Virus record (IMG/VR): IMGVR_UViG_3300036772_000367
Coordinates: 64,001 to 128,000 of that record
Source of the DNA: a virus
Strand: one strand, 5' to 3'
Length of the DNA stretch: 64,000 nt
In this document: in pieces, positions 1,971 to 51,341 of the stretch
Layout of the letters: each line of letters begins with the position of its first letter
How positions within the stretch are numbered: position 1 is the first letter of the stretch
Notes under the pieces: model-generated
Database searches by the model: none
Told to the model about the DNA's origin: nothing
Seen by the model: the letters and a program-made list of their open reading frames with translations, nothing else
Program-made: the position numbers and the translations under genes

Positions 1971-4463
1971 GTGCTGCGGAAGACCGCTGTCTTTGATGTC
2001 CTGGATGTCATCCAGGCGCATGATATTGCGCGACAGACTCCTCTAGGGCCGATCAGTCGCATCGGTCATCGACATGTCTTTGATTTCGAGCCTCGGTATG
2101 GCTACCTCTATGTTCGTAGCCGGATGATTTCCTCGCGGTGCAATGATAACTTCGATGAGTTCCCCGCCGAGGAAATCAAGAAAGCCTACGCCACGTTCGT
2201 CGGCAAGCCAGTCTTCGTCAACCACAATAACGATGATCACCGTCGGATGCGTGGTCTGATCATCGATGCCGTGCTGCACGAAGATCGTAACCCAGATGGC
2301 TCCCCAGACACCTGGGTCGAGGGCCTGATGGAGATCGATGGCCTGCGGTATCCCAAGTTGGCCAAAGCACTCATCAAACGGCACATCGAGCGCACCTCCA
2401 TGGGTGTGGACGTTGAGTACTCCATCTGTTCGAAGTGTGGCAACAAGGCCACCACACCACTGGAGTACTGCCGCCACGTGCCGGGCATGAAGGGCAAGCG
2501 CATCTACTCCTTCACCAAGTCTGGTGCCAGGGTCAGCGAACTGATCCGGGAGAAGTGCTACGGGCTGGGGTTCTTCGAGAACTCCCTGTTGGTCGAGCCA
2601 CCAGCAGATCCAACTGCCCTCTTTTTGGACAAGCCCATCCTCGGTCCTGGACTGGAGCACCTGGCCATGACGGCATCGGACCGTTACCTTCAGCGTATTG
2701 CCTCCGTCGCGGCATCCTTTCGTCTGGTAGCTGGGATGCGCTGCGTGGCATGTCGGGGTCTGAACACCGTGGCCGACCTAGAGGGGCACCACGAGTGCTT
2801 CGACTGTTCGGCGGCTTGGAACTCGCGTACCGCTTCTCTGGAAGTGGAAGCGGCTCCGCGTTACGCCGATCCTGCCCAACATCCTTGGTTCCAGCAGCAC
2901 CCGCTGAATCACCAGAACATCGTGGATCATTGGCATCAGGCCACTCCCGACGAGCGTACCCAAGGAATGCATTGGTATTCTGATGCGCATATTATCGGGC
3001 AGGCTCTCGGTGAGCACCATGAAAAATCGCATGGTCTTGTGCACCCGCAGGGTGCATCACATCTTGGTGCGGGCATTCTTGCGACCTACTCGCCTCAGAT
3101 GGGTTGGGCAGGCAATATGCACAATGCCGCCCGAGTGTTGCACGGCAACAAGGGCATCGGTGGACCTAATTCCGGCATGATGGCCAGTACCCATCAACGC
3201 GTCGCAGCCGACCGCATTCTCAACGGTGAGAACTACATGGATGTGCTCAAGGGTCCGAAGATCCAGGACTTCGCGCACCTGATCGAGCATGGTGGGGACG
3301 CTGATCCTGATCATCCTCATGTCGTGGTAGATCGTCATGCACTCTCGGTTGCCGCTGGTCATCGGCTCACTGATGAGCAATACGGTAAGGCTCCTACTTC
3401 GCAGCGGCACTACTACGGCCATGCCGTGCAGCAGTACCATCACGCTGCCCGTGAACTGTCCAACGAGGAGTCCAGCCCCGTCGCTGGGCATCAGGTGCAG
3501 GCCACTACCTGGCTGGTCCGTCAGCGCCTCAATCAGGCCGAAGAAAAGGCTCATGCCCAAACAGGAGCCGACACACGATTGGACCGAGGACGCGATCGTG
3601 CTCGGGGCAATGCGGAAAAGAAGTGGGAGGACTGGCGCACGGAGAACCTGCCTGATCTCCAACACAAGGGACCAGGCACCGGCTATGTCGCGCGACGGCG
3701 CAGTGTGGCCTATGGCGAGACGAAGGCCCCGGCCGACGTAGACACCCTACGCGAGGAAGCTTGTCCGGTTTGCGGTGAGGAGAACGCCTACGACGGCACC
3801 GAGTGCAAGGTCTGCGGTTTTGTCGCGCCACCCAAGGAATTCCAGGATCCTGACCTGGAGATGGCCAAGCGCGTCGACCTGCGCAAGGACGTGTCCGATT
3901 TGAATGGTGCCGACGTCTCCGATCTCAACGAGGATCTCAACGACGTTGACAAGGACGGACTTGACGACGAAACCGGGGAACCGGTCGACGGTACTGGCCC
4001 TGGCGACGTGCAGCCGACGTTGGTGTGCAACAACTGCGGCACCGAGTTCGAGGCAGGCGAGCCCATCACGACCGACACACGTGATCCGCAGGCTGGTGAC
4101 GCGGGACTCGGCCCCGACGAAGGTGACGTCTGCCCGGCCTGTGGCAAGGGCATCTTGGAAGCTCCCAACGATCTGGACGTCTCTCCACAGGACGACCAGA
4201 ATCGCTCCGAGCCCGAGGACCCTGACCCGTCTGCTCAGCAAACACCTCCTTTCTCGCGCGATCGCGGCGAAGAAGATGAGGATGAGAACGAGCAGAATGG
4301 GCAACCAGACAACGACGAGGACCCCGACGCCCAGGAACGCAACTTCGTGCCGACTGACGAGGATGGGGATCCTGATGATGATGGCGACAATGACGAAGAC
4401 GCCATTCCTCCGCGTAAGCGCAAAGGCACGCCTGCTCGCCAGGACCGGAACCCCTTCAAGTGA
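1971..4463 (+). CDS. Capsid maturation protease-like protein with an internal glycosylase-like domain, Zn ribbons and acidic C-terminus
   Basis: N-terminal FVGKPVFVNH...TSMG...ENSLLVEPPADPTA; central WYSDAH...SPQMGW...GPKIQDF...VVVDRHA...QVQATTW; CxxC pairs; lies before scaffold and capsid genes. Confidence 0.7.
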   Translation: MLRKTAVFDVLDVIQAHDIARQTPLGPISRIGHRHVFDFEPRYGYLYVRSRMISSRCNDNFDEFPAEEIKKAYATFVGKPVFVNHNNDDHRRMRGLIIDAVLHEDRNPDGSPDTWVEGLMEIDGLRYPKLAKALIKRHIERTSMGVDVEYSICSKCGNKATTPLEYCRHVPGMKGKRIYSFTKSGARVSELIREKCYGLGFFENSLLVEPPADPTALFLDKPILGPGLEHLAMTASDRYLQRIASVAASFRLVAGMRCVACRGLNTVADLEGHHECFDCSAAWNSRTASLEVEAAPRYADPAQHPWFQQHPLNHQNIVDHWHQATPDERTQGMHWYSDAHIIGQALGEHHEKSHGLVHPQGASHLGAGILATYSPQMGWAGNMHNAARVLHGNKGIGGPNSGMMASTHQRVAADRILNGENYMDVLKGPKIQDFAHLIEHGGDADPDHPHVVVDRHALSVAAGHRLTDEQYGKAPTSQRHYYGHAVQQYHHAARELSNEESSPVAGHQVQATTWLVRQRLNQAEEKAHAQTGADTRLDRGRDRARGNAEKKWEDWRTENLPDLQHKGPGTGYVARRRSVAYGETKAPADVDTLREEACPVCGEENAYDGTECKVCGFVAPPKEFQDPDLEMAKRVDLRKDVSDLNGADVSDLNEDLNDVDKDGLDDETGEPVDGTGPGDVQPTLVCNNCGTEFEAGEPITTDTRDPQAGDAGLGPDEGDVCPACGKGILEAPNDLDVSPQDDQNRSEPEDPDPSAQQTPPFSRDRGEEDEDENEQNGQPDNDEDPDAQERNFVPTDEDGDPDDDGDNDEDAIPPRKRKGTPARQDRNPFK

Positions 4464-12437: not shown

Positions 12438-14849
12438 ATGGCGACATTTGTTGCCAAAACAGACTGGGTGCATCCGAAGTCTGGCGGTACTTCCTTTTCC
12501 GTGACCCTGTCGCACACCGCTACCGCTGGCAACAAACTGGTGTTTTTCAGCGGTGGCGGTGCTATCTCCACTCCCACGGGTTTTACTGAACTCACCACCT
12601 ATGGGGGCGGTACGGAGGACGTTTCCATCTGGGACAAGACCGCTGCGGGCGGTGAGACGTCAGTTTCGGTGTCTCTCAATGGCTCCGGAGACAATGTCGG
12701 TGGAACCATCCTGGAGTTCGGGCCTGGCTTGACCTTCTCAGCGTGGTCCAACAATGGCACTGGCAACGTCGCCCAGCAATCCAACGACTACCAGATCTTG
12801 CCTTCGTCGGCGGTGTCGTTGTCCTCCGGCAACGGCGTGTTGGTCTCTATCCACACGGCCGCCACCTCGGTGGCCTGGTCGTTGGCCAACTCCATGCGCT
12901 CCTACGGACCACTGGGTTCGCTGATCAGCGTGGGTGGCAACGTGGATGCCAGTGGCACCGAGTTCTTCAACTACGGCATCGGCATCGCTGATGTCACGTC
13001 CACCGGTTCCTACCCGGCCACCGCAGCGGCGGGCCACTACACGGCGACGACGAACTACACGCCTGGCTCAGGGCGATGCTATGCGGCCCAGGTGCTCTAC
13101 ACCGACACGTCGGGTGTCGCCACCGTGGCTCCGTCGACCAAGACAGCGCAGGAGAACTCCCTGCCGGGGACCGTCTACCAGAACTGGTTTCTGGGTGACA
13201 ACGGCACCGACTCCACGACAGCCGCGTACACGGACTTTTGTTCGTATAACCCCGGCGACACTGTCAATTTCAAGGTGAATTCTTCTAACAATCCATTCCG
13301 AGTGGAGATCTATCGTCTAGGGTTCTATTCCTATGAGACATTCGGCGCTCGCAATGTGTTGGGTAATCAGGCTGGCTACATCACCGGCACCGCGATGGTC
13401 CAGCCGACACCCACCACTGATTCCACGCTGGGGTCGGTCTCGTGTGGTTGGACGACGAATGCCACCTGGGCGATCCCCTCGACCGCACAATCTGGTGTGT
13501 ACTACTACTTCGTGCGTCGTACGGATGTGACCACGCATGTTGCCTCAGGGCACTTCGTGGTCAAGGCAGCCTCGGTGACCAACAAGATGGTGGTGGTCAT
13601 CCCCGATCAGACCCATCAGGCGTACAACCGCTGGGGTGCCATCACGGACACTGGCACCACCATGACCGGCCGCAGTCTATATGCCTCCGGTGCCGACGGC
13701 GGCACGTGGGTGTTCACCGACCGGGCCTACGCGGTGAGCTTCGATCGGCCCTATGGTCTGCAAGCCGACCGCGACGTGACGTATCTGTTCGACTCCACCA
13801 TGTCCTTCATCTCTTTCGCCGAGGCGCAGGGCTACGAGATGTGCTATGTCAGCGACATGGATCTGCACGCCAGCCCCACGATCTGTCAGGGTGCGGCGAT
13901 GGTGGTGCTGGCTGGTCACCAGGAATATTGGACGACGAATACGTACAACGCGATGTACAACATCGTGAACAATTATGGCATCAATGTCGTGAACCTCTCT
14001 GCGAACACGGCATTGTGGCATACGCGGTTCGCGTCGGCCGACACAAACTACCGCACCATGATCTGTTACAAGGAATCCGGCACCCTGGATGTTGGGCCCA
14101 ATGGTGCGCTGCCGGGCACCGGATATGATCCGGTATCCTACACGGGAACATGGCGTGACACTCGGCAGCTCTCGGGCACCGTCAACAATGTTGACATCCG
14201 GCGCGAAAATTTCTTGGGTCAGATCTTTGTGATATCGGGTCACTTCTCCGGTCAGGCGGTCATCGACGCGGCCCACAAGACAAGCCCGATCTGGCGCAAC
14301 TCGGCCGGAGTCCAGGCGCTGACCACGGGGCAGACTTACACGTGCCCCATCACCTCGATCGGTGATGAGACTGACTATCCGGATGGCTCCTCCGGGCAAC
14401 CGGCCAACATGGTGATGTTGTTCTCCCAACCAGGCGTGACGTCGAGCTTGGGTGCGAACGCGGCAGGCACTTTGTACAGCAGCAGCGTGACAGTCACGCT
14501 GGGATGGACACTGGCACAGACCTCGGGCGGATCACTGATCTTCTCCACCGGCAACTGGCGTGGTCACAACCCGATCTCCCGCTGGCGTACCGCTTCCACT
14601 GCCCCCTCCACCGGAGGCATAGATCTGAACTGGCAGAACGCCCTGCTCTGCATCTTGTACGACATGGGACAGACGCCCGTCACGCTCACTGCGATGCAAC
14701 CGGGCACAGACACGGCTGTCACCGATCCCGCGATGGGTGGCATGGGGCAAGGCAAGACCACTGTAGGCAAAGCTTATGGATTGCTGGAGCCCACCCCCAA
14801 AGTGGCCTTTATGTACAGCCAGGCCGTCAATCGTTCGGCAACATACTGA
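12438..14849 (+). CDS. Virion protein with an N,N-dimethylformamidase beta-subunit-like domain
   Basis: SYNPGDTVNFKV...VEIYRLGFY...SGVYY...THQAYNRWG...SFDRPY...GHQEYWT. Confidence 0.7.
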   Translation: MATFVAKTDWVHPKSGGTSFSVTLSHTATAGNKLVFFSGGGAISTPTGFTELTTYGGGTEDVSIWDKTAAGGETSVSVSLNGSGDNVGGTILEFGPGLTFSAWSNNGTGNVAQQSNDYQILPSSAVSLSSGNGVLVSIHTAATSVAWSLANSMRSYGPLGSLISVGGNVDASGTEFFNYGIGIADVTSTGSYPATAAAGHYTATTNYTPGSGRCYAAQVLYTDTSGVATVAPSTKTAQENSLPGTVYQNWFLGDNGTDSTTAAYTDFCSYNPGDTVNFKVNSSNNPFRVEIYRLGFYSYETFGARNVLGNQAGYITGTAMVQPTPTTDSTLGSVSCGWTTNATWAIPSTAQSGVYYYFVRRTDVTTHVASGHFVVKAASVTNKMVVVIPDQTHQAYNRWGAITDTGTTMTGRSLYASGADGGTWVFTDRAYAVSFDRPYGLQADRDVTYLFDSTMSFISFAEAQGYEMCYVSDMDLHASPTICQGAAMVVLAGHQEYWTTNTYNAMYNIVNNYGINVVNLSANTALWHTRFASADTNYRTMICYKESGTLDVGPNGALPGTGYDPVSYTGTWRDTRQLSGTVNNVDIRRENFLGQIFVISGHFSGQAVIDAAHKTSPIWRNSAGVQALTTGQTYTCPITSIGDETDYPDGSSGQPANMVMLFSQPGVTSSLGANAAGTLYSSSVTVTLGWTLAQTSGGSLIFSTGNWRGHNPISRWRTASTAPSTGGIDLNWQNALLCILYDMGQTPVTLTAMQPGTDTAVTDPAMGGMGQGKTTVGKAYGLLEPTPKVAFMYSQAVNRSATY

Positions 14850-47292: not shown

Positions 47293-47549
47293 CTCCGTTC
47301 ACTCAGTGTGATGTTGACCAAGGGGAGGTTGACAGACCAGGTGGCGACCACTATCACGCGTGTCCGGGCGCATTGTTTTGTGTGTCGACGATCGATTTGA
47401 CATCGTCATTACCATTGAGGGTGGAGTTGGGTGGGTACGATACAGTCCATCCCGATATCCAGGATTTGACATGGTGGATAGGATCGGTTCTGGCTTCTGT
47501 TCTCCAACAAGCTCGCTCATATCCGCTCGCGAAATACATAAGGGCAACT

Positions 47550-47600
47550 CACGCGCACGCGCTACGCGCCTGCGCGCTCGCTGCGCGCTACGCGCGCGAG
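47550..47600. repeat. CGCGC-rich low-complexity tract
   Basis: cacgcgcacgcgctacgcgcctgcgcgctcgctgcgcgctacgcgcgcgag. Confidence 0.7.
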
Positions 47601-47914
47601 GTATGCCAGGGACCTAACAACGGTATTCAACCGTACCCAGTAATATCGCGCGAGTACCCGACCGCCGCCCCCAGCGCAAGCCCTCGACGGAGATTCTTAG
47701 AATGACTTTCGATACGCCTGACAAGACCGAGTACTGCCGGGAGAGTGTGTCTCTGTGGGAATGACACATAGCCATCGCTGGGGTGAATGGGTATACGATC
47801 CGTACACCAACAAATCTATTCGGACATGTAAGGATCTTGAGTGTCAGGATCAGCAGACAGCCTCCGGAGATAAATCTCCTGGCAAAGACAAGAAGAAATA
47901 AATAGTCGGTCTTC

Positions 47915-47949
47915 CTGTGTACGGAGCGATGTTTCCATTAAAGGGTTGT
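47915..47949 (+). promoter_or_regulatory. Putative late promoter motif (variant)
   Basis: CTGTG-N21-AAGGGTTGT. Confidence 0.45.
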
Positions 47950-47998
47950 TCCTGACACTCTGCTCGGCGGCTGCCGGGCTCATCTACCAGGAGACCGA

Positions 47999-48598
47999 AT
48001 GCCCCATCAGGTCAAGACCCTCGTCGGGAATGTGACTCTACCGTCCGACGATGAGGGCCCGCCGATTTCCGTCCAGGCCGCGCAACAGACCATCACGTTG
48101 ACGGACGCGCAGTATGCGAAGATCCCGCCCGCCGCTTTCGCCAGCATGTCGTTCTACCAGGAACTGACGCCCGACCAGATCTCTAACGCCAACGCGCCGT
48201 ACCAGGGCCTGTACTACTCCCTCACCGGCACGCACAGCGCCTACCTCCAGGACCTGGGGGCGACTGCCGGCGGCAGTATTCTGGTCACGGCTCAGGGCAC
48301 GCACGTCGCTGCGATGGGTGCTCTGACCTCGTCGGCCCCAGCGGCCGTGACGTCCAGTCAGAACGCCACGACCATCGCGGTGACGCCCGCCAACGCGTCC
48401 TACACCCAGGCTGACCAGACCACGATCGCCAACCTGGCGAACGCCCTGAAGATCAGCTACAACGCCGCGCAGGTCGACATCGCAGCCCTGCGCACCACGT
48501 TGGCCGCAGTGCAGACCGACTTGGCGACACTGCGCACGTTGGTGAACACTGAGCTGGCCGCCCTCCAGATCACAGGTGGTCCGCAGGCAGCGAGCTGA
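47999..48598 (+). CDS. Probable virion fibre/decoration-like protein
   Basis: AGGAG RBS; C-terminal coiled coil LRTLVNTELAALQ; late motif upstream. Confidence 0.7.
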   Translation: MPHQVKTLVGNVTLPSDDEGPPISVQAAQQTITLTDAQYAKIPPAAFASMSFYQELTPDQISNANAPYQGLYYSLTGTHSAYLQDLGATAGGSILVTAQGTHVAAMGALTSSAPAAVTSSQNATTIAVTPANASYTQADQTTIANLANALKISYNAAQVDIAALRTTLAAVQTDLATLRTLVNTELAALQITGGPQAAS

Positions 48599-48611
48599 CC
48601 TGTAGAAGCAC

Positions 48612-48648
48612 CTCGACCCCGCACCTCCTCCAGGGTGCGGGGTCGAGT
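48612..48648. terminator. Hairpin between convergent units
   Basis: ctcgaccccgcacc...ggtgcggggtcgag. Confidence 0.7.
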
Positions 48649-48688
48649 CTGTCTAGAAATATGGAAAGCGACGACGCACTCCTGGACT

Positions 48689-49690
48689 GGAACACCCATC
48701 GATGGCTTGGCGAATGAATCACCCCAATGAAACACTCTGGATCGCGGTGTGTGGAATACCCATATAAGATGTCGCGAACGGAACACTCCAGATAGTGGCG
48801 AGAAGTCGTCGGGCGTGGAACACCCGTAACTGCCAACACGCCAAGGAGGAACACCCTCAAATCGGCGCGTACCTGTGCTATGGAACATCCCCGTAGAACA
48901 AAAGACCCGCTCGGCTACCGCTGTCGGAACACCCCGTGTACGTGGGACAGATAGGTGGACCGACGATCTACGCCGAGGCCGGGAGGGAACACCCTCAGGA
49001 ATCAAGGTCATCGCCCTGGGACGGGAGGGAACACCGGACCCTGCTACATCGGCAGCGGCAAGTGGAACACACAGGCAGTGGTGAGGAACGTCGGGGGAAC
49101 ACCCTGTTCGGATTGCTTCCCCCGTAGGAATACTCTCACAGGTACCGGTAGACGTGCCGAGAACACCCTGTACGGCATGATCGACTGATCGTCGCGGAAC
49201 AAACCCTCAGATCTTTCGGATGACCAGGTAGCCCAGAACACTCTCGTGAGAACACTCTTGTACAGCGGGAGTTATACAAGTTCGCTGGAGCAGCCTCGCA
49301 TACACGGGACAGATCTGGAGCCGCGCGGGAGGGGAGAACACCCCTGTGTACGTGGGATAGACCTTACGTGTGTCGGCGTAAGCCCGTACAGCAGAAGAAC
49401 ACCCTCGCGTACACAGGAAAGACGGCCCGCCGTCGCTGTCCGCCTTGAGTGGAACAACCCTGAGTACGTGGGACAGACGGACCCTTCTTGCCGAGCCACA
49501 GTCTGTCACTCGGAACACTTCTGCGTACGTGGGACAGACCGCTCGAAGCGATCCTTGAATGCCTGACGAGCCGGAATACCCCTGTGTACGTGGGCAGACC
49601 TTGGCGGTATTCGCGGCCCGGAACACACCCGCGTACGCGAGACAGACGGCGGCCCTGTAACCACGGATGGATGAGCCAACGGAACATCCC
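48689..49690 (-). CRISPR. Degenerate type I-E-like CRISPR array with no cas genes in the window
   Basis: 27-28-nt repeats, consensus approximately GTCTGTCCCACGTACRCAGGGGTGTTCC, at + starts 48926, 49287, 49335, 49396, 49451, 49512, 49573 and 49620; four 61-nt periods; about 17 further units with only the GGGTGTTCC-like end. Confidence 0.8.
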
Positions 49691-49714
49691 GTCAGGGCAC
49701 CGATTTCCCGTGTC

Positions 49715-49875
49715 CATATCACTATGTAGATATAGGGGTGTGTCAGGAATTACTTCCTGGCGGTGGCCATCTGACGATGGTCTTCTCGTTTCACCGAGGA
49801 CTGCTCACCATTGCTGGTGAGACTGACATTCTCTCCACGAGCGTTTAATGTCTCCCCTGCTCCAGAGGCGACAGA
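49715..49875 (-). ncRNA. Putative TnpB omegaRNA overlapping the tnpB 3' end
   Basis: GUCGCCUCUGGAGCAGGGGAGAC...AAACGCUCGUGGAG...GUGAAACGAG...CAGGAAGUAAUUCCUG...ACACCCC hairpin series; boundaries approximate. Confidence 0.55.
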
Positions 49876-51201
49876 TCGATCAGGGGCCCATTCCACCAGA
49901 TTTCTGGCGGCATTCACGTCCCGATTGAGGACGAGACCGCAATGATCACAAACATATACTCTGTCCTGGAGGTTCAGCGTGGCTTTAACTGAACCGCATC
50001 GAGAACATACTTTACTGGAAGGAAAAAATCTGTCTACCACGGTCAGGGCAGATCCGTACCACTGGGTCTTGTAGTCCAGTTGGCGGCGGAACTCACCGAA
50101 CGCGGCATCCAGAATCGAGCGCGAAAGACCTGATTTCGCTCGAACATTCTTGCCGGGCTTCTCGACGGTGCCTCGGGCTGAGGCTGTCATGCCGAGTACG
50201 TTCAGATCTTCGATGGCCACGCGCTCGTACTGCGTAGCCAAGTTCTTGGTCAGCCCGTGCAGGAACGATGCTCGTTGCTCGGCGACCTGGTGGTGAATGC
50301 GGCCGACCCGAACTGCCGCACGATGACGTCGTGCAGAGCCCCGTTCGGTCCGACTCAGTCGCCGCTGTGCTGTGCGCAGTCGTGCGGCAGCAGCGCGGAC
50401 GAACCGAGGATTGTTGATCAGGGTGCCGTCCGAGTAGGCGGCCAGGTGCAACAAGCCCACATCGACACCGACGGCACCACGGACACGCTGGGCACGCGTG
50501 GTGGGCCGGAGAACGTGCTCTGCCGGCTCCTTCACCAACACGGCCGCGTACCACTGCGAAGCGCCCCGAGATAGCGCCACGGACTGAATCCGGGCACCCC
50601 TACTCAGGGCACGCACCAGACGCTTCGCCGAGGAGTGCAAGCGAAGCGACCCGAGTCGGGGAACGAGTAGGTGCCGGTATCCATCCGGGCGGATGGTAGG
50701 CGACTTGACATCGTGGTAGATCCGGAATGAGTCGCGCGAGCGACCCTTCTTCTTGAACTTCGGGTAGCCCATCTTCCGGCCTTTGCGTTTGCCGGTGAGG
50801 GAATTCATCCAGTTCTTGAAGGCAGCATCGGCATCGGAGAAGGCCGAGGAGAAGGTGTAGGAGGACACGGTGCGCCACCAGGGGCTGGCACCGTCCTCGC
50901 CGGTCTTCTCGTCGCCTCGGATCTTGATCCACGCACTCTTCATCGTGAAGGCCGTCGGGATCTTGATCGACACCTGCTTGCGGGCGACCTGCTCGTCTAG
51001 GCCCTCGTCCACCAGCGCCTGGACCTGGTCACGCCAGGTCTGATGCACGCCGATCTTCACCGCCAGGGCGTGATTGAATGCCCATCGAGCGGTGCCGGCG
51101 TGCTGTGCCAACGCGGACAGCTGGTTCTGGTTGGGGTCCAGGTTGAAGCGGTACGCGCGGAGGATCGTCGCCGACTCATCGGACTCGGTCATCTCACGCA
51201 C
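49750..51201 (-). CDS. tnpB: RNA-guided endonuclease TnpB (ATG 51192 is better spaced from the RBS)
   Basis: AYRFNLDP HTH, YPKFKKK, RuvC GVDVG / IEDL / RDVNAARN, Zn ribbon CSRC..CDHC; all three catalytic acids present. Confidence 0.95.
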   Translation of the reverse strand: MREMTESDESATILRAYRFNLDPNQNQLSALAQHAGTARWAFNHALAVKIGVHQTWRDQVQALVDEGLDEQVARKQVSIKIPTAFTMKSAWIKIRGDEKTGEDGASPWWRTVSSYTFSSAFSDADAAFKNWMNSLTGKRKGRKMGYPKFKKKGRSRDSFRIYHDVKSPTIRPDGYRHLLVPRLGSLRLHSSAKRLVRALSRGARIQSVALSRGASQWYAAVLVKEPAEHVLRPTTRAQRVRGAVGVDVGLLHLAAYSDGTLINNPRFVRAAAARLRTAQRRLSRTERGSARRHRAAVRVGRIHHQVAEQRASFLHGLTKNLATQYERVAIEDLNVLGMTASARGTVEKPGKNVRAKSGLSRSILDAAFGEFRRQLDYKTQWYGSALTVVDRFFPSSKVCSRCGSVKATLNLQDRVYVCDHCGLVLNRDVNAARNLVEWAPDRSVASGAGETLNARGENVSLTSNGEQSSVKREDHRQMATARK

Positions 51202-51231
51202 CTCCTTCAGTCGCTGGAACCGGTAACACGT

Positions 51232-51260
51232 AATCTACGCATGTCTTCCGCAGAAGTCAA
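51232..51260 (-). promoter_or_regulatory. Sigma70-type promoter of tnpB
   Basis: TTGACT-17-TAGATT, then GAAGGAGG RBS. Confidence 0.7.
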
Positions 51261-51341
51261 ACTACTACGGAGGTAGTTTTCTCTTCCCTCGGAGGTCACT
51301 GGGCTGCTACACTTCCTAAAGACGCCAACCGCACCGGAGGA

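Follow-up and report, generated by a model that had tools for sequence, protein, structure and literature searches.

The locus described here lies on the minus strand of a window of 64,000 nucleotides (the whole stretch of DNA that was analysed) from a phage. Its gene, cas12n (49750..51192), codes for a protein of 480 amino acid residues that carries a TnpB/InsQ family annotation, has Pfam and PHROG matches, and finds its best PDB match in RdCas12n (9J09). A longer open reading frame on the same strand (49750-51201) matches the Pfam families HTH_OrfB_IS605, OrfB_IS605, and Cas12f1-like_TNB. The start codon is likely the ATG at 51192 rather than the GTG at 51201, since the ATG follows a GGAGG ribosome-binding site (51205-51201) at a spacing of 8 nt and gives 480 residues, as in database protein P0001.

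The first-pass annotation of this DNA had described a tnpB gene with intact D/E/D residues, a strong ribosome-binding site, and a near-consensus promoter. The RuvC triad is indeed intact (D244, E328, and D425), and the ribosome-binding site is the one just given. A promoter-like site, TTGACT-17-TAGATT, is also present upstream of the gene (51232..51260, minus strand), but as a sequence match from a consensus scan it agrees at 9 of 12 positions, which makes it good rather than near-consensus. The protein further contains a CCCC zinc finger formed by two CxxC pairs (C396/C399 and C415/C418), the motif YHDVK at residues 159-163, and a tail of about 55 residues beyond RuvC-III.

The neighbours of cas12n are a DinG-like helicase and unnamed open reading frames. 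No transposase gene adjoins it, in keeping with the earlier remark that neither tnpA nor a serine recombinase is adjacent. It is the one TnpB-like gene in the 155-kb phage genome, in which neither Cas1 nor Cas6e was found.

The array and its repeats

The array (49691-48689) directly follows the end of the gene at 49750 on the same strand, as had been noted before (a start about 60 nt after the stop codon, in the same orientation). It consists of 24 units, each ending in G(G/A)GTGTTCC. Same-strand matches to GTGTTCC with at most one mismatch number 24 in this interval, where the remainder of the genome would predict 1.67 (P = 7.5e-20).

The proximal part (49335..49691, minus strand), delimited from the sequence and a motif scan, comprises units 1-7. 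Unit 1 is a degenerate first copy with the handle CGGGATGTTCC, ending at 49681. Units 2-7 end at 49620, 49573, 49512, 49451, 49396, and 49335, and the periods are 61, 47, 61, 61, 55, and 61 nt. Whole 28-nt type I-E-like repeats are found in 8 of the 24 units, counting degenerate unit 1; the clear copies are units 2-7 and 17. We take the I-E label from likeness to the consensus repeats of E. coli and actinobacteria, together with the clean repeats of a related locus, L018, whose CCCCGC/GCGGGG hairpins are perfect. The whole repeats of the phage array are mutually 74-89% alike, and a divergence of 11-26% is unusual for an active array.

The distal part (48689..49260, minus strand), recognized by information content and enrichment, holds 16 handle-only mini-repeats and one whole repeat, unit 17, at 48953-48926. 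The mini-repeats keep just the last 9 nt or so, with the consensus G[GA]GTGTTCC, at periods of 14-44 nt (mostly 24-44). Across the phage units, information content is high at positions -10..-2 only and about zero at -28..-11 and at -1. The part that forms the Cas6e hairpin is gone from 16 of the 24 units and imperfect in the 7-8 or so that have I-E length and period. Part of the array may be dead, since several handles have mismatches to the anti-repeat and the predicted guides of some units are just 14-17 nt long, that of unit 8 being 4 nt. Readings of the motif as an iteron or protein-binding site, or as a replication origin, were dropped because it covaries with the RNA at each locus.

A GC-rich hairpin (48612..48648, no strand assigned) lies between the array and a convergent open reading frame (47999-48598). 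It had been called terminator-like; the hairpin is present, but a minus-strand U-tract is absent and the terminator scan did not call it. It is probably a two-way terminator that lacks a U-tract. L018 has the same order of array and hairpin, with a clearer hairpin at about 3385-3415.

Relation to Cas12n and TnpB

The gene and array had been proposed as a possible TnpB-CRISPR hybrid. The system is not a new one: judged by its sequence, the phage "TnpB" is a member of a known family of miniature CRISPR nucleases, Cas12n (type V-N, formerly V-U4, C2c9). In a PDB search, its best solved relative is RdCas12n (9J09, E 3e-94), whereas ISDra2 TnpB (8H1J/8BF8) scores more weakly (E 1.6e-46) and LaTranC (9JFO) matches the C-terminal part only (E about 1e-18). 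V-U4 nucleases encoded by viruses have reportedly been predicted earlier.

An array-linked protein from Actinomadura craniellae is 54% identical to the phage protein over 474 residues (E 2e-178). From its species, its length (505 versus 506 residues), and its array linkage, this appears to be the published AcCas12n, a protein of 506 residues from A. craniellae (PMC11641405). The phage protein lies in the Cas12n size range of 400-700 residues, has the RuvC D-E-D residues and the zinc finger, and is closer to Cas12n than to transposon TnpB. Its gene adjoins an array but no adaptation genes, and computation adds a tracrRNA-like 3' overlap with repeat/anti-repeat and pseudoknot pairing.

Three known systems can be compared with the locus. 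AcCas12n and RdCas12n share with it the size, the domain layout, the intact RuvC and zinc finger, a tracrRNA overlapping a dispensable C-terminal tail, and the adjoining array without adaptation genes (PMC12216341). The Cas12n tracrRNA is likewise described as overlapping the 3' end of the open reading frame in PMC12216341 and by Chen et al. 2023 (pmid 37402371), as cited in PMC11641405. A pseudoknot between repeat positions -4..-2 and the loop of stem 1 is predicted in the phage as well. The phage locus differs in that it sits in a contractile-tailed phage, that most of its repeats are cut to the 9-nt handle with correspondingly short periods, and that its PAM-reading motif is YHDVK; this resembles HHDV(K), the PAM motif of the AcCas12n clade, in which it reads HHDVK (PMC12216341).

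TnpB of the ISDra2 type (IS200/IS605, IS607) has the same nuclease core, a guide scaffold encoded by the 3' end of the gene, and a guide 3' of the scaffold. The phage has no transposase and a single copy of the gene, and in place of one fixed guide it has many array units, each providing the last strand of the scaffold. TranC (for instance, LaTranC) follows a similar concept: the nuclease is TnpB-like, and the function of its omegaRNA is divided between a tracr part and crRNAs carried by an array. Its repeats are omegaRNA-derived, however, whereas those of the phage appear to be borrowed from type I-E, and the sequence kinship is distant.

Linkage and RNA contacts across loci

In about 40 of the 50 loci whose protein is at least 48% identical, the gene lies directly upstream of a same-strand I-E-like array, which answers the earlier question whether related TnpBs are also array-linked. 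These arrays have 28-29-nt repeats with a period of about 61 nt, and begin about 75-270 nt past the end of the matched protein region. The linkage is kept across loci in Actinomycetota. The closest three relatives, L018, L017, and L019 (79, 74, and 66% identity), all have a downstream array; L017-L019 stem from the samples SRR24358106, SRR31557150, and SRR26545931. The gene moves with its array: L017 carries the cassette in inverted orientation and L019 carries it elsewhere in the genome, giving three genomic contexts among related phages. Related phages with the array but no tnpB had been named as counting against the association; these carry gene and array together.

The bacterial Cas12n-linked arrays retain whole repeats, unlike the mini-repeats of the phage. 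L019 also has a handle-only array, but its handle, GGGAUGGUUC, is another one and matches the anti-repeat and loop triplet of L019 itself. This compact layout has been seen only in this phage group.

Several wider searches gave little. Both the gene and the motif cluster are missing from distant phage relatives picked up by their helicase (27-48% identity), which are too far removed to inform, and megablast of the locus against cultured phages gave no match. A loose three-handle pattern matched at least 118 stretches in IMG/VR; it is unspecific, since none of the 80 loci examined has a Cas12n relative. A repeat-pattern search for hosts in 401 Actinomycetota genomes found two with similar I-E repeats, an uninformative result. 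In two genomes with I-E genes, hits to a degenerate repeat pattern were not above control, Cas12n-linked arrays aside.

The tracrRNA-like region (49734..49872, minus strand) overlaps the 3' end of cas12n and is defined by a consensus structure over 30 loci and by covariation with the repeats. The structure has 31 pairs, 24 of them with compensatory changes. In the phage it includes stem 1 (49872-49850) with the loop GGAGC and the pseudoknot triplet GGA (49863-49861), a terminal hairpin spanning the cas12n stop codon (49759-49744), and the anti-repeat ACACCCCT (49741-49734), all on the minus strand. The predicted pairings are between the anti-repeat ACACCCCU and AGGGGUGU, and between GGA and UCC. 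Two short complements to the repeat, ACACCCC and GGAGCA, had been pointed out before as perhaps due to chance. They lie in this region (ACACCCC(T) at 49741-49734 and GGAGCA at 49863-49858), and both are RNA contacts that covary with the repeat across loci.

The 8-nt anti-repeat pairs with repeat positions -12..-5 and the loop triplet of stem 1 with positions -4..-2, and each covaries with the repeat of its own locus. In a set of 42 loci, for which 19 repeats and 15 loops were entered by hand, the pseudoknot triplet forms three of three Watson-Crick pairs in 40, with seven pair types (GGA/UCC, GAA/UUC, GGU/ACC, GAC/GUC, GGC/GCC, GAU/AUC, and GAG/CUC); 0 of 20000 permutations reach the observed value, relatedness among loci being ignored. 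An automatic subset free of manual entries, which covers the pseudoknot only, gives pairing in 18 of 18 loci and again 0 of 20000 permutations.

The anti-repeat occupies a homologous site in most loci, as 28 distinct 8-mers. Its mean score against its own repeat is 6.99 compared with 6.16 after permutation (0 of 20000, likewise ignoring relatedness among loci). The covarying contacts agree with those in the RdCas12n structure, in which the loop of stem 1 pairs with repeat positions -4..-2 (PMC12216341). Duplex energies between the handles and the tracr tail were confounded by an alternative UUCC/GGAA pairing, and an Rfam scan of the locus gave nothing meaningful.

Interpretation of the locus

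The best explanation, to which we assign a probability of roughly 80%, is a phage-borne type V-N (formerly V-U4) CRISPR-Cas12n locus, with guides from the array and a tracrRNA at the 3' end of the gene. The first-pass annotation had suggested that TnpB may load array guides with the omegaRNA as a tracr-like partner; array linkage, covariation, and the keeping together of gene and array support this.

In this model, cas12n would be transcribed from its own promoter, and the transcript would probably continue into the array. The last 140 nt or so of the mRNA (49872-49734) would fold into the tracrRNA, and each array unit would yield a crRNA in which a short handle precedes a guide at least about 20 nt long. 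In the handle, positions -12..-5 would pair with the anti-repeat just past the terminal hairpin, and positions -4..-2 (UCC) with GGA in the loop of stem 1 to form the pseudoknot. Cas12n, its catalytic residues intact, would then cut guide-matched DNA beside a 5'-AAN PAM. By their resemblance the phage repeats appear to be of type I-E origin, and most units would have been trimmed to a handle of about 9 nt and a short guide because selection apparently retained only the bases that Cas12n contacts. Its most likely use would be against rival phages or plasmids, or against the host.

Spacer searches gave no target. No protospacer beyond chance was found for the window and L018 spacers in the INPHARED cultured phages, nor for all spacers in the phage's own genome and all fetched related loci; two exact spacer 22-mers had no target in IMG/VR. 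An AAG PAM had been proposed as evidence against use by the nuclease, an invalid test because AcCas12n itself prefers 5'-AAG (PMC12216341).

An improbable alternative is that the array is a relic: Cas12n would be intact while most of the array decays, with only the tracr-contiguous first unit (omegaRNA-like) or a few whole-repeat units in use, and the handle motif kept for reasons other than guide function. The unusual divergence of the repeats, the units that are too short or whose handles mismatch the anti-repeat, and the lack of a detectable target for any spacer searched all fit this, as does the leader-repeat junction CAGGTCAGGAAGT, which is absent here and kept in L018 and the bacterial loci. 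However, point decay of an array with a 61-nt period cannot give 16 units at such short periods that keep the same 9 nt with no information at -28..-11, and L019 repeats the layout with its own handle. Moreover, phage genomes rarely retain 1 kb of useless DNA. A more far-reaching reading, in itself rather unlikely, takes the handle-only units for functional crRNA genes. The array would then have repeats of 9-11 nt and guides some 15-30 nt long, free of the parts that I-E adaptation and processing need. If they work, the array would be built or renewed without Cas1-Cas2, possibly through recombination or copying linked to the TnpB-like nuclease. CRISPR finders would not see arrays of this kind, which could be widespread beside phage TnpB-like genes.

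Use by a host type I-E system is less probable again. Here the locus would be a mini-array hijacking host Cascade, or a Racr-like RNA decoy that binds Cascade subunits through the 5'-handle. The 28-nt repeats with 33-nt spacers are I-E-like, the L018 hairpins are perfect, the 9 conserved nt share bases with the segment that gives rise to the I-E 5'-handle, and actinophage PIS 136 has an orphan I-E array without Cas12n. Yet the hairpin needed by Cas6e is lost in the 16 mini-repeats; position -1, within the I-E handle, is unconstrained, whereas -10..-9, outside it, are conserved; and the conserved bases are those of the Cas12n contacts and vary in step with the tracr at each locus. Among five bacterial genomes with Cas12n arrays, three lack Cas7e and four lack Cas1e. 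Virus-borne mini-CRISPR arrays and Racr are short phage arrays or solitary repeats resembling host repeats, which rely on Cas proteins of the host and retain the hairpin of the repeat; the phage locus has its effector gene beside the array, and the hairpin is what it has lost. Racr identity was rejected, as only -10..-2 is conserved and the hairpin part carries no information. Dual use by Cas12n and I-E is conceivable, since the AcCas12n PAM, AAG, equals the I-E PAM (PMC12216341). Hardly credible, finally, is a chance neighbourhood, in which an ordinary IS605/IS607 TnpB transposon landed beside an unrelated old CRISPR array, even though relatives are publicly annotated as TnpB/InsQ or "IS607 family element TnpB" and TnpB genes are common in phages (PMC12607003). 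Against it stand the absence of an adjoining transposase, the single copy in the phage genome, the lack of recombinase family domains in all 10 upstream frames of relatives that were searched, the linkage across Actinomycetota, the covariation of both RNA contacts with the repeat, and the joint movement of gene and array.

On the preferred reading, a Cas12n locus fed by its own array, the unusual part is an array with most repeats reduced to the Cas12n-contacting bases -10..-2; the nuclease family itself is known. In the evolution of CRISPR effectors from transposon TnpB, Cas12n is regarded as the first stage, and the phage locus and its relatives throw light on it. The Cas12n tracrRNA and the repeats, apparently borrowed from type I-E, evolve in concert at two short contacts only. 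In this phage, which lacks adaptation genes, the repeats seem to have been trimmed to these contacts, leaving a naturally minimal handle (about 9-12 nt) for the crRNA. Such a handle could help in designing shorter guide RNAs for Cas12n, and the locus suggests that repeat finders miss cryptic handle-only arrays. The shared AAG PAM (PMC12216341) and the I-E-type repeats further suggest that Cas12n makes use of spacers that type I-E systems have acquired.

The nuclease gene and its phage

The source IMG/VR virus record is 155,226 bp long and rated complete; the window covers its bases 64001-128000 and has a G+C content of 59%. Since tail sheath, baseplate and tape-measure-like proteins as well as helicases are encoded in the window, the virus is a contractile-tailed phage. 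Its genome holds a single TnpB-like gene, and neither Cas1 nor Cas6e was found in the 155,226 bp searched.

The TnpB-like gene (cas12n; 49750-51201, minus strand) carries three TnpB-type Pfam domains, and a promoter-like site (51260-51232) lies upstream. Its true start is probably the ATG at 51192, 8 nt past a GGAGG, which yields a protein of 480 amino acids, as in the database. In an alignment with 18 relatives, the catalytic residues D244, E328 and D425 and four zinc-finger cysteines form invariant columns. A sequence search of solved structures gives RdCas12n (9J09) as the top match (E 3e-94), with ISDra2 TnpB far behind at about 1e-46. The protein is 54% identical to a 505-aa protein of Actinomadura craniellae, the species of the published AcCas12n (506 aa; PMC11641405). 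Judged by its sequence, the window nuclease belongs to the known family Cas12n (type V-N). The name is also used in some papers for Cas-lambda, which is a different protein.

The Cas12n of type V-N, formerly called V-U4 or C2c9, is a monomeric, TnpB-like nuclease. Its guide consists of a crRNA and a tracrRNA, the latter overlapping the 3' end of the ORF, where a dispensable tail is encoded; its PAM is 5'-AAN, with AAG preferred by AcCas12n (PMC12216341; preprint 10.64898/2026.03.27.714800). Virus-encoded V-U4 nucleases have been predicted earlier (PMC12607003).

Gene and array among relatives

Fifty loci were fetched from Mycobacterium, Streptomyces, Kitasatospora, Frankia, Nocardia, Actinomadura, metagenomic viruses and SRA assemblies, each encoding a relative of the nuclease with at least 48% identity. 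Whether relatives are also linked to arrays, a check proposed in the first-pass annotation, has a positive answer: 40 of the 50 have a same-strand array of 28-29-nt type I-E-like repeats, beginning about 75-270 nt beyond where the protein match ends. Most of the other ten have single or degenerate repeats.

Gene and array travel as a unit, because the cassette is found in other placements in related phages. In L017, a close relative whose neighbouring proteins are about 87% identical, it is inverted against the phage backbone (L017:5480-7700 against window 47400-51300). In L019 it occupies another genome position (L019:2508-4400), beside a homologue of the window gene at 12438-14849.

What follows the array was also recorded. 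In the window and in L018, convergent ORFs with about 64% identity stand right after it (47999-48598, plus strand, 199 aa; L018:3426-3872, minus strand); the window ORF matches nothing in Pfam or PHROG. The 62%-identical relative L313 has, at 1690-1830, a whole and a truncated repeat that lead directly into tRNA-gene-like sequences. In a bacterial relative (59% identity; L309:4480-5141), a single repeat precedes an opposite-strand HigB-like toxin/HTH antitoxin pair.

Cas12n arrays with type I-E-type repeats occur in Actinomadura craniellae (G001, locus L141), Kitasatospora phosalacinea (G002, L126; at least 18 repeats) and a Nocardia genome (G005, L119), and neither Cas7e nor Cas1e was detected in these three. 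Across five bacterial genomes that carry such arrays, Cas7e is present in two and Cas1e in one. A CAGGTCAGGAAGT-like junction motif directly 5' of the first repeat is common to L018, L307, L313, the bacterial loci and phage PIS 136, and is absent from the window. In Saccharomonospora phage PIS 136, a cultured actinophage, four type I-E-like repeats, GTCCGCCCCGCGTATGCGGGGATGAACC, form an orphan array that is not annotated (L180:3500-3720; JX006077.1, about 12.85-13.06 kb); it shares the leader junction CAGGTCAGGAAGT. No Cas12n gene lies near this array.

Predicted contacts between the tracrRNA and the repeat

A conserved multi-stem RNA fold is predicted for the 3' end of the nuclease gene and the next ~20 nt, with compensatory changes at 24 of 31 predicted pairs (30 loci). 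The first three bases of its stem 1 loop complement repeat positions -4 to -2, counted back from the repeat 3' end, in 40 of 42 loci. The Watson-Crick triplet pairs used by these 40 are of seven kinds, and the close relatives L131 and L134 differ from each other (GGU/ACC versus GAU/AUC). Pairing is found in 18/18 of the subset free of hand-entered data. When loop triplets were compared with their own repeats, the observed value was reached by none of 20,000 shuffles, which ignore kinship among loci. This contact is the pseudoknot between -4 to -2 and the stem 1 loop resolved in the RdCas12n structure (PMC12216341). In the window, GGA (49863-49861, minus strand) pairs with UCC.

The 8 nt past the terminal hairpin complement repeat positions -12 to -5. 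Most loci have a homologous site, and own-repeat pairing scores above all permutations, kinship again being ignored. This anti-repeat contact corresponds to the repeat:anti-repeat stem of RdCas12n (PMC12216341); in the window, ACACCCCU (49741-49734, minus strand) pairs with AGGGGUGU.

The first-pass annotation had seen two short complements and noted that they could be chance; they are the pseudoknot and anti-repeat contacts. As both covary with their own repeat across loci, the proposed use of array-derived guides with a tracr-like RNA partner is well supported at the level of sequence.

An array of handle-only units

The array had been correctly placed downstream of the intact gene, on the same strand: 24 units with a GTGTTCC-like end run from 49691 to 48689, where the rest of the genome predicts 1.67 such matches (P = 7.5e-20). 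The genome has nine exact copies of GGRTGTTCC, eight of them inside the array. A whole 28-nt repeat (consensus GTCTGTCCCACGTACACAGGGGTGTTCC) is present in units 2-7 and 17, with a period of mostly 61 nt and a mutual likeness of just 74-89%. A 61-nt period is typical of type I-E, and the repeats are labelled as of that kind by resemblance. Sixteen units are reduced to ~9 nt, their period ranging from 14 to 44 nt, mostly 24-44. A GC-rich hairpin (48648-48612) closes the array and faces the convergent 199-aa ORF, which may be part of the cassette. Another terminator-like hairpin, with a T-run, lies at spacer 5/repeat 6 (49434-49421, minus strand) and may be due to chance, the background rate of the scan being high. 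The suggested spacer search gave no target for the window and L018 arrays in cultured phages, the phage's own genome or the fetched loci, nor for two exact spacer 22-mers in IMG/VR.

Most of positions -10 to -2 carry 1.3-2.0 bits of information in the 16 short units (0.6 at -9), compared with about 0.1 bits at -28 to -11 and at -1. Thus, the phage has kept the bases that contact Cas12n, and has lost both the Cas6e hairpin and the final base of the type I-E handle. Point decay alone cannot convert a 61-nt period to 14-44 nt (mostly 24-44) and leave the same 9 nt intact every time. A length of 31-37 nt is common among the units, roughly what a 12-nt handle and a 20-25-nt guide would take up. Some units of the array are probably dead, having too short a guide or a mismatched handle.

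The three closest relatives resemble the window in array behaviour. The repeats of L018 (79% identity), GTCTTCCCCGCTTACGCGGGGATGTTCC, are clean and decay to bare handles distally, and its array ends with a hairpin and convergent ORF as in the window; L017 (74%) shows two repeats before the contig ends; and L019 (66%) has handle-only units alone, about nine. In bacterial repeats the mismatch rate is even along the repeat, at 3.6% in the 5' part and 3.5% in the 3' part (30 loci, 202 repeats), so that handle-only units are confined to this phage group. The possible TnpB-CRISPR hybrid proposed at first is well supported as a mechanism but is no novelty: the family is the known Cas12n, and what is unusual in this system is the handle-only array.
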